A DNA stretch of 64,000 nt, taken from NCBI GenBank assembly GCA_964019425.1, contig OZ025793.1, positions 744,001 through 808,000 on the forward strand, in the 5' to 3' direction. Each line of letters opens with the position of its first letter. Position 1 is the first letter of the stretch. The stretch is from Flectonema sp. DT1601 (lineage: Eukaryota). Shown here piece after piece: positions 29,520 to 35,007 of this stretch. Under the pieces are notes generated by a model that worked only from the letters and a program-made list of their open reading frames with translations, did not search any database and was not told the DNA's origin. The position numbers were made by a program, and so were the translations under genes.

Positions 29520-32500
29520 ATGTCGGACCCGAACAACGATTCTCTTCCGGAAGACATTGGTCAGCTGAGATGTGTTATAAATTCGATGAAAACGACATCT
29601 GATGATCCAAGCAAATTGATAGGCGGACGAACAACTCTCTACGTCGCTGCTAAGATGGGTTTTCTTGAGTTGATGAAAAGTATCTGTGAGGAAATGCAGA
29701 CTCCATCATCTTTAATTAACATGCCAATGCCAAAGAGTGAATCCACGTCAATGCATGCGTGTTGCTTTAATAAGCATGTTGATTGTGTGTTGTATTTATT
29801 AGAAATAGGTGGTGATTGTAATGTTGCAAATAATTATAAAGAAACACCTTTCTTAAATGCTCTTCAAGGAGGAAGTCAGCAGGTCCTTGGTAGAATACTT
29901 CCTCATGTTAGTAAAAGTAACTTTGAAAAATCAACTGAGTTGCTGGACTTCACGAGTCACTTGTTCGGTGGGAAGTCCATGGCTTATATCTTGGCGAGAG
30001 GAGGTCACACTGATTTTCTTCGGCTAATCACAGAGAGAGCCGTCAATGATGTTTTTGTACAGAATAATTCAACTAAAAAACATAACAATCTCATGCAATT
30101 ATTAGACAGTAAGTCTGATGACAATGCTGCTGCTACTCCTCTTCATGGTGCTGCTTTCAATGGACATACGGGATGTTGTGAACTATTACTACATCACGGG
30201 TGTATTCCAGATGAAATAAACGGTCTTGGAGAATCACCTCTCACTAATGCTATTCAGGGAAACCATTGCGACATCGTGTTGATGTTGTTACCCTTAACAT
30301 CTCTTACAGTTATTGGTCAGACACTTCCATTTCTTGAAGGAGATCCGGATGTACCTATTTCTACTAAGGGTGTGTTATTATGTTCTTCTCGAAAACTAAA
30401 GTGAAGGAGGAGTTTTAAAAAAAAAAAAAACAGGTCGGACGCTAACCCATATTGCAGCCATGACTGGGAGACTAGACGTTGTCGAACACGCGATCCACAA
30501 TTGGGGTGCATCAGCTTCTGCTGTCGACGATGAAGGAAACACTGGTCTTCATCTGTCTGCACAAAATGACAACACCAAAGTGATGCATTATTTTTTAGGA
30601 AAAATGACTCGTGAACAAGCCGTGGCTAAGAATCACAAGCAGGAAACAGCTCTCATGCATTTTATAAAAAGCCCAGAGAAAGAAATATTTCCGGAAGAGG
30701 CGAAAAGTGTTAAGAAAATACTAGCCAAACATCATAGCAAGAATATTGACAGCATACTGGAGATTCTTTCAGAATTTTTGAGTAATTCGACGTCGCAGTG
30801 TGATAAGAAAACAGATTTTGTTCCGATCACATTTCCTACTCCAATAGATGATGACATAAATGCCTTTGACAGACAATCTTATGATTTTTTGGAAGATTTC
30901 TCTCCTGAAGATGATAAAGTCGACTCTATAACACCCTGGCTTCATTGGGACACTAGTCCACTTAAAAGCCATCCATTTTCTCAGCTCTCTGAACCTTTTA
31001 AACTGACCAAAATAAGAACTGAATGTGAACAATGTTGTAAACGTATTCATAGTGATATAAGTGAGTTTAAAAGTTCTTTATTTGGGACATTTGTTAAAGC
31101 TAAAATAAAAGATTGGATTTTAGCGTTAATTGCATGCGATTCTCAAGTTGCCTTTGAGAGAATCGTTACGATCTGTTTGTACACTAGTCCGACATTTCAT
31201 CCAAAAAGTAATTTAAGCTTATCTATGATTCAGGCAGGGGCAGGTCAATCAATAAGTGAATCGGCTGAGTATCCTCATGCGTGTAAGTGTAAAGTATTGC
31301 AGCTATTCATTTATAAGTTAACTGGTGCTATTGATAGCTTACCGAAAGACCATAGATACGGATATCGTGGAGAGAGCTCAACTGAAACAACTAAATTAGA
31401 CTCCGGGTCGGTTTTACTGTATCATAACTTCGCATCTGCAAGTACCAATCCAAGTGTTGCAAAAATGTTTGGTAGTACAGGTGTGTTAATGTGTTTAGTG
31501 TCAAGTTCAGCACCTGTTATAAAACCGTTTTCTTCGTTGCAGCATGAAGAAGAATTTTTATTCAGACCAAACTGTCGGCTTCGGATTCAATGGAAATTGT
31601 CATCATCTTTACTACGAATGCTTTCATGTAGTTTTGACGTACTTGTTCTTTATGAGATAAATCCTCTCTTAAGTTCAACAGGTCAGTCTAAGTGGAAAAC
31701 TGTTCAAACTATTTTACAATCAATCCGAGACGTCAGCTGCTCCGTTAGTGATGTTGTCTTTAAAGACTTCTTAAAAGAATATATCGAAGCGAAATTAGAC
31801 ACCGAAACTGCATCCTCTGTTGGGTTGTATGAATTGCTAAAGCAATGGATAACATCAAGTGACTTCAACCCTATTGTTATTGAAGGTACACCTGGTAGTG
31901 GTAAGACAAGTGCTGGAATCGCTGCAGTTCAATTCCTGGCCTCGCATAAAATTGAGGTAAAAGAAAAAGTTGAAAGCCTGGGATGGGGAAGTCCGTTTGG
32001 ATTCTTCAGCACTCATCCCTCTAACAGCATCACCGAAGTCGCTGATAATCGAGAAATATTTCCAATTTTCATTCCGTTACCGAAAGTTAGAGATTTGTTT
32101 TCTGAAAATGCGATTGACAATTACATCCTAAATACCTACCTGGCGATTAATGAATTTGTTTCGACGGATGAAGACACTGAAAAAGTAATTAATTGGCTCC
32201 TAAAAACCTATAAAATGGTTGTTATCCTTGACAGTCTGGATGAAATTATGATATCCTTAAGCGTCATGAGCAAGAGCTCATTAAATTTGGTAAAATTGAA
32301 TTCATTCTTATCAAAATGTAGAATTTTATTAACGACAAGGTCATCATTTATTGAACGACACGCGACCAAACCAACTGATTTTCTCGGAAAGTCAACCAAC
32401 GGTTACTGTCTTAGACCGTTTTCAACAGATGAAAAAGAGAGATACATTGAGAATAAGTATGCCTTCAGAGCAAAATCATGGCTTAAACAAAATAATTTAT

Positions 32501-35007
32501 GGACAGAAGTGGAAAATCCATTTCTTCTCAGCATGGCAGTCGCTGCTCAGGGTGAACTAAGTAGGAAACCTTCACCTGAGATATGCGTCACGACGTGTGA
32601 TGTGTACGAAGGGTACTTTAAATTTTTCAAATCTCAACAACAGTTAAGGGAACCAGACAATACCTTCACTTTCGATGAAGTTATAAAAGCTGCTGAACAG
32701 TTGGCTTGCAAGATGACGAGACTCGGGATCTACGAAGCACCAATAGCAGTCTTCTATCACGAATCTAAATCTGATTTGGCAACAATTCGATCATTACTAA
32801 AATATTTACCTCTTCGAATTGAAGACCTCCATGATCCACACAGTGCAATTACTTTTCGTCATAATACGTTTGCTGATTTTTTAGTGGCGAGAGCTCTGTG
32901 GGATAGACCAGTACAGTTGCTGACTGAGTTTTTCAATGAAACGAATATGTTTTCTAACACGTCAGGACATGGAATTCTTGACATGTATCGAAACTTATTG
33001 AAGTGTGATCCCTCGAAATACGACACTCTTGAGGAGGACCTTGTTCAACTTGTTATAAAAAGCAGGTCTGGATTGAAACAAGATGTTGCAGTTGGGTCGA
33101 ATTCTCTCTCATTGCTGTGTGCTGCGGGAAGAACGTTAGCTGGTCGGGACCTCTCAGGAATTATTATAGAAAACACCGATCTGTCGAGATGTTGTTTTTC
33201 TGGAGTGAATTTTCAACTTTCAGTTTTTAAACATTGCAATTTTAAGGGAACACAATTCCATAATTGTGATCTTGGACATGTTGACTTTACTGATAGCGAT
33301 TTATTAATGGCCGCAGCACCCCTCAGAGGTCACACTAACGTTGTTCTCGCTGTGGCTTACTCAAAGTGTGGAAGATACTTGGCGAGTGGATCTCGAGACG
33401 CAACTGTGAAGATTTGGTCTTCAGCAGGAGACCTTCTACATAGTTTGAAATCCCATAATGGATTGGTAACGGGATTGTCATTCTCGAATTGTGGATCGTT
33501 GCTGGCAAGTAGTAGTCAGGATTCTACTATTAAGCTGTGGGACGTCGATCAGTTCTTCTCACCAATTATAACTCTCAGAGGACATACCTCACGAGTAAAT
33601 TGCGTTGCCTATTCAAGATGCTCCAGTTACATTGCAAGCGGATCAAACGACAATAGTGTCAGAGTCTGGTGTGCCAATTCTGCGACTGTTTTATCAAAAC
33701 TAAACAAACATGTTAAACCTGTAACAAGTGTTCAATTTTCAGCTAGTGGTGAACACCTAGTTTCAACATCCAAGGATAGCTTTGCAATTGTATGGCAAGT
33801 TCGTCATAATTCTGCTCCTTTGGTTGATTTGATTGAAGGAGGAGAGTCTCCTCCTGTCGTATTAACGATGAAACACAAACTGGGAGGTCACGTCGGTGCT
33901 GTTTCCTGTGGTGCTATTTCAAAATGTTGTAATTATGTGTTTACTGGTGGGAGTGATATGACTTTGAGAAAATGGAATATTTCGACTGGAAAACCACTTC
34001 GTCAATTTCGTGGTAGCGGTCGGATGAGTGAAATAACTAGTTTAGCCTGTTCTCCTTCAGGTGAGAGGTTAATAAGTGGAGGATTTGATAACTTAATCAG
34101 AGTCTGGGATACGACAACAGGTCGACAAGTTACCCAGTTCGAATCCACCTGTAGTGATGGTGTCGCTACCTCGATAGCATATAGTAACTGTGGTAGTTAT
34201 ATCGCTTCTGGTTCACCAAACAACATAGTTAACGTTTGGAATTCAAAGTGGACATCATTACGAAGAATAGAAAAACATCACAACGGAGCTAGTACAGCTA
34301 TATTCTCAAACTGCGGTAAAGATATCATAAGCGGAGGAAGAGATGGAACTGTCCGAGTCTGGTCATCTTCAACTGGAAAAGAAATCTACACCATGGACAC
34401 CTCATCAGATTGCTATGTCATCACCATCGCTACATCAGTCTCAGGAGATATGTTCGCTGCTGGTGGATCGGATTGCTTGGCTTACATATGGCATACCCGA
34501 GTTAACAATGCAACCCATGTTTTAAGAGGTCATTCGAAACCTGTTTTATCGGTAGCATTCTCACCTTCTGGAATTTTTCTCGTCTCGGCTGATGCTTCTG
34601 GTTTGATCGCTGTGTGGGAAAGTCACAGCGGGAAATTCATCGCAAACTGTACATCTAGCCAGTGCAAAGGGAAGGGTCACTCCCTTCCGGTGAATTTTGT
34701 AGCCTTTAGCAGTTGTGAAAATTTTATAATGTCAAAGGATATTCACAACCATGTTAGGTATTGGTATTTTCAGGATCGTCGTCGTTTTCAACCCCAATCA
34801 CCACCTCTTCCAGACGTTGTCTTCTTAGAAAAAAAGAGAGAATTCAACAACGAGAAGCTACTCATTGAGAAAGGAGACATTCGACTGATGTCAAATAAAA
34901 TTCGACTTTGCATCGGAGGCATGGATAAGAACCTCTTGAAAGATTGCAACTGTAGTGGAATACTACCTGAGAGTACGAGAGACATACTGAAGTCTACTTG
35001 TGATTAA
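29520..35007 (+). CDS. NLR/STAND-like protein: ankyrin repeats - mono-ADP-ribosyltransferase - NACHT - pentapeptide repeats - WD40, join(29520..30369,30434..35007), ~1807 aa
   Basis: About 9 ANK repeats (e.g. ATPLHGAAFNGHTGCCELLL); the 64-nt GT-AG intron restores repeat GRTLTHIAAMTGRLDVV. ART motifs YRG / FASAS / HEEEFLF. Walker A GTPGSGKT, Walker B VVILDSLDE, ILLTTR, winged-helix FRHNTFADFLVA. Pentapeptides (DLSGI/DLSRC/NFKGT). About 11 WD40 repeats. Confidence 0.88.

Follow-up and report, generated by a model that had tools for sequence, protein, structure and literature searches.

The 64,000 nucleotides analyzed here (the window: positions 744,001 to 808,000, forward strand, of contig OZ025793.1 in the Flectonema sp. 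DT1601 assembly GCA_964019425.1) contain, at 29520-35007 on the + strand, a gene whose predicted product joins an ADP-ribosyltransferase (ART) resembling those of bacterial toxins to an NTPase resembling those of NOD-like receptors (NLRs). The ART-NACHT core is the constant part of a large family in diplonemids, as judged by sequence, and the ends of the proteins vary. I propose that the protein is an NLR-type switch in which a sensor gates an arginine-specific mono-ART serving in defence or cell death. Taken whole, this reading seems to me slightly better than an even bet, and its parts are not equally secure. The regions to which the argument refers are these:

29520..30369, + strand: exon 1, with the start codon and about 6 ankyrin repeats (amino acids 1-283); open reading frame (ORF), Pfam Ank_2 at 77.7 bits, 55% identity to the N-terminus of the Flectonema protein P0008
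30370..30433, + strand: predicted intron of 64 nt, GT..AG, phase 1, acceptor a run of A followed by CAG; best splice pair against P0008
30434..35007, + strand: exon 2, with 3 further ankyrin repeats, ART, NACHT, pentapeptide and WD40 regions, tail and stop codon
30434..30732, + strand: ankyrin repeats 7-9 (Pfam Ank_2, 33.6 bits)
30913..31671, + strand: ART, R-S-E type (cholera-toxin-like clade), with a helical N-lobe; from Pfam, an alignment with Vis and a structure model
31687..33123, + strand: NACHT-type module of the signal-transducing ATPases with numerous domains (STAND), comprising linker helix, nucleotide-binding domain (NBD), helical domain 1 (HD1), winged-helix domain (WHD) and helical domain 2 (HD2); from Pfam, Foldseek and motifs
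33145..33303, + strand: pentapeptide repeat region (Pfam Pentapeptide, 43.6 bits, cut-off 20.2), short strands in the model
33328..34770, + strand: WD40 repeats, the predicted sensor; 10 stretches by Pfam, 11 by eye
34771..35004, + strand: C-terminal tail, with a motif loosely common to family members of the WD40 type (31 tails aligned)

Gene structure and domains

The locus presents itself as two overlapping ORFs on the + strand, 29505-30404 and 30400-35007, out of frame with each other. What joins them is a protein from a relative. The ART-NACHT part, used as a query, finds a protein from the Flectonema neradi transcriptome at 62% identity (P0008, 1817 amino acids, one of three isoform proteins), and the same protein extends across the first ORF, with 55% identity there. 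All in-frame GT/GC..AG pairs around the ORF junction (n=36) were scored against P0008. The pair 30370-30433 scored highest of all and, among the 15 best, is the only one that aligns with 0 gaps. The resulting product of 1807 amino acids is 60.0% identical to P0008 over 1800 aligned residues; by region, identity to the Flectonema orthologue is 68% in the ART core, 64% in the NBD, 62-64% in the NACHT part and 62% in the WD40 repeats. The acceptor resembles three other sites within 17000-36000 at which a run of A and C precedes CAG, and A-rich acceptors with CAG are known in some Diplonemidae, according to the available text of PMC12621601.

It might be thought that the locus holds two separate genes, one for ankyrins and one for ART-NACHT-WD40, or else a frameshifted pseudogene. 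The database gene call here (P0003, 1515 amino acids) does begin within exon 2, and the other two Flectonema isoform proteins, of 1537 and 1477 amino acids, both lack the N-terminal ankyrins. But P0008 crosses the junction without a gap, fixing the GT..AG pair, and it is a transcript that encodes ankyrins and ART-NACHT in one chain. Separate genes or a pseudogene are for this reason hardly credible, and I have dropped the reading of two genes. The predicted model of one gene and one protein, ANK-ART-NACHT-pentapeptide-WD40, is confirmed, and with it the 64-nt intron and the protein of about 1807 amino acids that a preliminary description, made from the letters of this DNA, had claimed.

That description had also claimed an ART of the R-S-E type, and the motifs lie exactly where it placed them: YRG at 31363, FASAS at 31429 and HEEEFLF at 31543, with catalytic codons for R at 31366, for S at 31435 and for the E-x-E at 31546/31552. 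The Pfam ART family (PF01129) scores 37.7 bits, above its gathering cut-off of 22.3, and an alignment of the domain with Vis (E 0.003) extends over all three motifs, R, S and E-x-E. A structure model covering 30913-33330, built from a 29-sequence alignment, has a predicted local distance difference score (pLDDT) of 83.2 and a predicted template-modelling score (pTM) of 0.81. When the model was compared with 48,161 solved chains, its residues 1-253 best matched ART2.2 (Z 16.4, root-mean-square deviation (rmsd) 3.1, 191 aligned); the segment from 31.2 to 31.65 kb thus does model as an ART fold. Next come HopU1 (Z 15.8), a chain of 6drh (15.5) that I take to be Tre1, XopAI and Vis (14.9) and ExoS (14.4), and SpvB is likewise among the best matches. 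By signature residues, Pfam score and predicted fold, the domain is a member of the R-S-E clade (ARTC). Human ART1 carries the same R-G/S-A-S/E-E-E motifs (PMC7955679).

In the NTPase, the Walker A motif GTPGSGKT (31885), the Walker B motif ILDSLDE with its two acidic residues (32224), the sensor-1 Arg in TTRS (32332) and the winged-helix His in FRH (32854) are all present, and Walker A, Walker B and FRH are again exactly where they had been placed. The Pfam NACHT family (PF05729) gives a borderline result, 26.1 bits over a long stretch and 28.4 over a trimmed one, with a cut-off of 26.7. The fold search agrees with the assignment: Foldseek ranks NOD2 (1.3e-11), NLRC4 and NLRP3 at the top for the STAND part, and the model beyond the ART matches NOD2 (Z 14.1, rmsd 5.2, 401 aligned). 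Motifs and predicted fold together confirm a NACHT-type STAND NTPase, with an NBD-HD1-WHD-HD2 fold like that of NOD2 and NLRC4. A prediction of the ART domain in complex with the STAND module, in which the alignment was not used, scored 0.11 with the mark at 0.34 and is no evidence either way.

The repeat regions bear out the earlier description as well. Pfam finds ankyrins in both exons (about 9 repeats by eye), the pentapeptide region and most of the roughly 11 WD40 repeats. The WD40 repeats are mutually divergent, with a mean identity of 37%, and no tandem DNA repeat was found in their region. A hydropathy scan detected no membrane-like or hydrophobic segment in either exon, and Pfam scans of both ORFs turned up no delivery domain and no HET domain.

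Core and ends of the diplonemid family

Searched with phmmer, 1.84 billion cluster representatives yielded 79 hits, in which domains were called with profiles built from the hit sequences themselves. The NBD is found in 68 hits, and in 64 of these an ART lies no more than 200 amino acids upstream, with a median spacer of 59. In an independent check, Pfam (E 1e-4) recognises an ART in 16 of 24 selected hits. These include P0083, a MuF-ART protein that lacks the NTPase and, as an outsider, is excluded from the family counts.

The key residues of this pair of modules are almost invariant at a mean pairwise identity of about 27% in the ART. Of the ART segments that an NBD follows directly (65, not counting isoforms and P0083), the catalytic R is kept in 65, the S in 64 and the catalytic E in 64; the motif is E-x-E in 56 and Q-x-E in 7. 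The 65 NBDs keep the Walker A Lys in 65, the Walker B Asp and Glu in 63 and the sensor-1 Arg in 63, and the winged-helix His is kept in 55 of 58 members. Since the catalytic residues are near-invariant on both sides across so deep an expansion, both modules are probably active and working as a unit. Identities in the ART and the NBD correlate (Spearman 0.56, 0/999 permutations), and this speaks for joint inheritance, not for co-evolution.

The organisms behind 24 of the 79 representatives, apart from that of the window itself, were looked up. Ten could be named, and all 10 are diplonemids: three are Flectonema, five Namystynia and one, by accession, Artemidia, while the tenth has the prefix Hpha and is presumably Hemistasia. 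Two word-index searches with an alignment, yielding 5 and 4 proteins, left the taxonomic range as it was. A tblastn search against plasmids and phages gave no match, and no PADLOC or NCBIfam family, in libraries that cover described systems only, matches 30913-33330. An Atlas search found only NACHT clusters, all under 0.8, which are leads and nothing further.

It had been expected that effectors would be swapped across the family. The reverse was found: the ART is the constant part, and it is the sensor and N-terminal modules that vary. I have therefore rejected effector swapping. Downstream of the core, 33 of the 64 ART-NBD members have pentapeptide and WD40 repeats, 3 have pentapeptide repeats only, 21 have neither and 7 end early; among members without WD40, Pfam finds TPR in 3 and LRR in 3. 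Several of the variant architectures come from transcripts and are therefore not artefacts of gene calling. In a quick tree of 65 cores, drawn from family members only, LRR requires 3 changes, TPR 2, and WD40 12 (vs a shuffled mean of 21). LRR appears in three separate places, one of its rows being on a long branch. Near-identical WD repeats are a trait of fungal non-self receptors. One member, P0091, has such repeats, with a mean identity of 83%; a value of at least 60% is reached by 2 of the 19 proteins scored.

Ankyrins lie upstream in just 14 of the 64 members and are therefore optional, not core to the mechanism. The earlier description, which took them for a second recognition or substrate-targeting module, needs correcting on this point.

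Some members depart from the usual plan. P0089 has three tandem blocks of winged helix and pentapeptide repeats, and P0012 has two STAND modules in 6012 amino acids; either may be an internal duplication or a gene call that reads through. A myristoylation-like pattern, MGxxxS/T, stands at the N-termini of P0007, P0017, P0022, P0025, P0030, P0031, P0050, P0056 and P0058, which suggests that part of the family may be targeted to membranes. The gene in the window has a Flectonema orthologue that does not show the pattern.

Proposed mechanism and its rivals

In STAND proteins generally, repeats sense, the NTPase switches and oligomerises, and the adjacent effector fires. Applied here, the WD40 end would be where a ligand or a perturbed host protein is sensed; the NACHT module would then exchange nucleotide and oligomerise, turning on the adjoining ART. 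The ART would then move ADP-ribose from NAD onto an arginine of some cellular target, and this modification would be the output in defence or cell death. The ankyrins would probably serve as an accessory module for localisation or for substrate, since other domains replace them in relatives. By analogy with known members of both classes, the ART is very probably active as an enzyme, and it is probably gated by the STAND module. A role in immunity or cell death is also likely, if with less assurance; I favour a role in conflict because of the expansion of the family, the exchange of its sensors and the near-identical WD repeats of P0091. E-x-E is the mark of arginine-specific transferases, and it is from this motif that I infer the specificity for arginine.

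Several observations weigh against this proposal. The query of the family search included the ART, so that ART-bearing matches were enriched. As a control, 24 hits were considered whose best-matching stretch fell in the NACHT part, and 18 of them have an ART. Five of the other 6 are short or start too late to hold one; the sixth, P0047, is full length and retains only an ART remnant. In P0012, too, one STAND copy (the second) has no detected ART, so the ART can evidently be lost. Then there are relatives that resemble signalling proteins in the domains they carry: PDZ in one member and, at N-termini, RCC1, ANF-receptor, endonuclease/phosphatase-family and SAM. A membrane-like segment lies upstream in 3 of 67 members, which fits ordinary signalling, and the Namystynia transcript P0065 places ANF-receptor and periplasmic-binding domains and a membrane-like segment ahead of ART and STAND, possibly a surface-receptor version. 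Finally, the paralogue in the window is conserved between two diplonemids, its WD40 identity (62%) being no lower than that of the NACHT part (62-64%), and its WD40 repeats (37%) are not internally homogenised. Nothing in this points to an arms race at this sensor.

These facts can be turned into a different account, in which switch and enzyme are the same and the output is not lethal: a reversible ADP-ribose mark on arginine, written by receptors that serve everyday physiology (feeding, motility or the life cycle) and not immunity. The conserved orthologue, with no fast evolution of its sensor, suits this account, as do the members with an ANF-receptor ectodomain and membrane-like segment or with PDZ, SAM, RCC1 and phosphatase-family domains, and the 8 of 64 members that begin with an MGxxxS/T-like acylation pattern (a pattern match only). 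Ordinary signalling explains less well why the family has expanded so far at about 27% identity, why WD40, TPR and LRR have been exchanged recurrently and why one member has homogenised repeats, all of which fit conflict systems, and the nearest folds are those of NLRs. I regard it as unlikely, though it deserves a hearing. Less likely again is that the enzyme mainly hydrolyses NAD, clustering in a STAND ring to drain the cell of NAD or to yield free ADP-ribose as a signal, in the manner of TIR, SIR2 and TeTIR. Chemically, this is the chief rival to arginine transfer: the top structure match, rat ART2.2, is chiefly an NADase, and 7 of 65 members have Q-x-E. The protein in the window, however, has the arginine-transferase mark E-x-E, as do 56 of the 65 members, and the best matches to its fold include HopU1, Tre1, Vis, ExoS and SpvB. 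A precedent for NAD depletion as an output is provided by TeTIR-NACHT-WD40 proteins, according to the available text of 10.64898/2026.09.21.753143.

It is also conceivable that the ART does not deliver the output at all, being an integrated decoy or NAD-binding module with the output elsewhere (the ankyrins, for example), or that the whole protein is an offensive toxin aimed at prey or hosts. Its sequence and predicted fold do resemble bacterial toxins, and diplonemids include parasites and predators, as the accessible text of 10.64898/2026.01.29.702485 describes. Decoys decay, however, whereas R, S and E are kept here almost throughout, and only 14 of the 64 members have ankyrins; neither exon encodes a hydrophobic segment, and the Pfam scans show no delivery domain. 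Both ideas seem to me improbable. The sensor-gated transferase remains the reading I prefer.

Precedents, significance and neighbouring genes

The protein has the layout of an NLR (effector, STAND module, repeats) and, by sequence, belongs to an expanded family with varied sensors. Compared with the animal NLRs NOD2, NLRC4 and NLRP3, it shares the fold from NBD to HD2, the Walker motifs and the winged-helix His, but identity is about 14-16%, the effector is an enzyme in place of CARD or PYD, and the family's sensors are WD40, TPR or LRR. Fungal HNWD proteins (the HET-E type) are defined by a HET domain at the N-terminus and by WD repeats that are nearly the same as one another, and the window protein, with no HET match and repeats 37% alike, is not one of them. 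Known R-S-E mono-ARTs are ecto-enzymes or delivered toxins. The ART in the window shares with ART2.2, human ART1, HopU1, Tre1, Vis and ExoS the fold (Z 14-16), the R, the S-x-S and the E-x-E, but is only 15-21% identical to them and is fused inside a STAND receptor.

The nearest precedent, going by the available text of 10.64898/2026.09.21.753143, is TeTIR-NACHT-WD40/TPR (TEP1, NWD1, NWD2), which likewise has an NAD-consuming domain directly upstream of NACHT, C-terminal WD40 or TPR repeats and an optional N-terminal extension. It differs in that the domain upstream of NACHT has a TIR-like fold, where the window family has the R-S-E ART fold, a pentapeptide spacer and a large expansion in protists. 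The layout of effector, NACHT and repeats, with WD40 or TPR sensors, recurs in fungal NLRs of the NWD/HET-E type and in bacterial NACHT proteins, in the parts available of PMC9815663 and 10.1101/2022.07.19.500537; in the latter, bacterial effectors vary and sensors follow the NACHT, whereas in the window family the effector is constant and the ends vary. Among solved structures, the family NTPase best matches in sequence the bacterial Avs STAND protein SeAvs7 (PDB 9N00; PMC13581612; E 2.8e-9), which also has a built-in enzyme effector.

A family of NLR-like proteins with a constant ART effector is apparently undescribed. Full-text literature searches, which did not reach most subscription papers, brought up no paper that describes a fusion of ART and NACHT or NLRs of diplonemids. 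The paper on the D. papillatum genome (PMC10161547) and the preprint on gene transfer in diplonemids (10.64898/2026.01.29.702485) use no ADP-ribosyl, NACHT or NLR term in their main texts. An ADP-ribosyl term is likewise absent from the main texts of the fungal effector survey (PMC9815663) and of the bacterial NACHT preprint (10.1101/2022.07.19.500537), whose supplements may list such a fusion, and from the main text and 7 supplementary files of the prokaryotic STAND survey (PMC13581612). In the accessible parts of PMC8195603, PMC3482391 and PMC2853523, ARTs figure as toxins or as effectors of death and NACHT-WD40 appears with caspases, but no ART-STAND protein is named there.

I would put at an even chance the broader proposition that diplonemids possess an undescribed NLR repertoire, with dozens of WD40, TPR or LRR receptors built on a fixed ART-NACHT core and all signalling by toxin-style ADP-ribosylation. 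The known outputs of NLR-type proteins are pores, adaptors, proteases, nucleases and NADases of the TIR/SIR2 type. A constant R-S-E ART output would add a new chemistry, and with it a new class of NLR effector, and would reverse the bacterial NACHT pattern of varying effectors. Among marine protists diplonemids are abundant; they carry bacterial endosymbionts and include a genetically tractable model. If the proposition is true, it would provide the first molecular entry point to cell-autonomous immunity in an abundant group of plankton, and NLR-based defence in single-celled eukaryotes would become testable with one enzyme read-out.

The rest of the window holds other genes. Its first 16600 nucleotides (1-16600) are a tandem array of about 3.6 copies with a 4617-bp period and an ORF of 1152 amino acids rich in Pro/Thr/Glu repeats, weakly matching Glyco_hydro_18 (E 0.044). 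At 20290-21270 there is an intron-split gene for an Sm protein with a proline-rich tail, probably SmB (LSM, 34.1 bits on 20597-20737), whose introns have A/C-rich acceptors. The consecutive + strand ORFs at 21526-28783 may be one multi-exon gene, encoding a leishmanolysin (Peptidase_M8, 111 bits) and, after it, a multi-membrane region that includes a C2 domain and looks polycystin-like by eye. On the - strand, an ORF of 674 amino acids at 40333-42357 weakly matches reverse transcriptase (E 5e-4) and is probably a retroelement, and 43930-63998 is a tandem array of subtilases (Peptidase_S8; 4 scanned), in which forms of 580 and 617 amino acids alternate with a period of 5669 bp.

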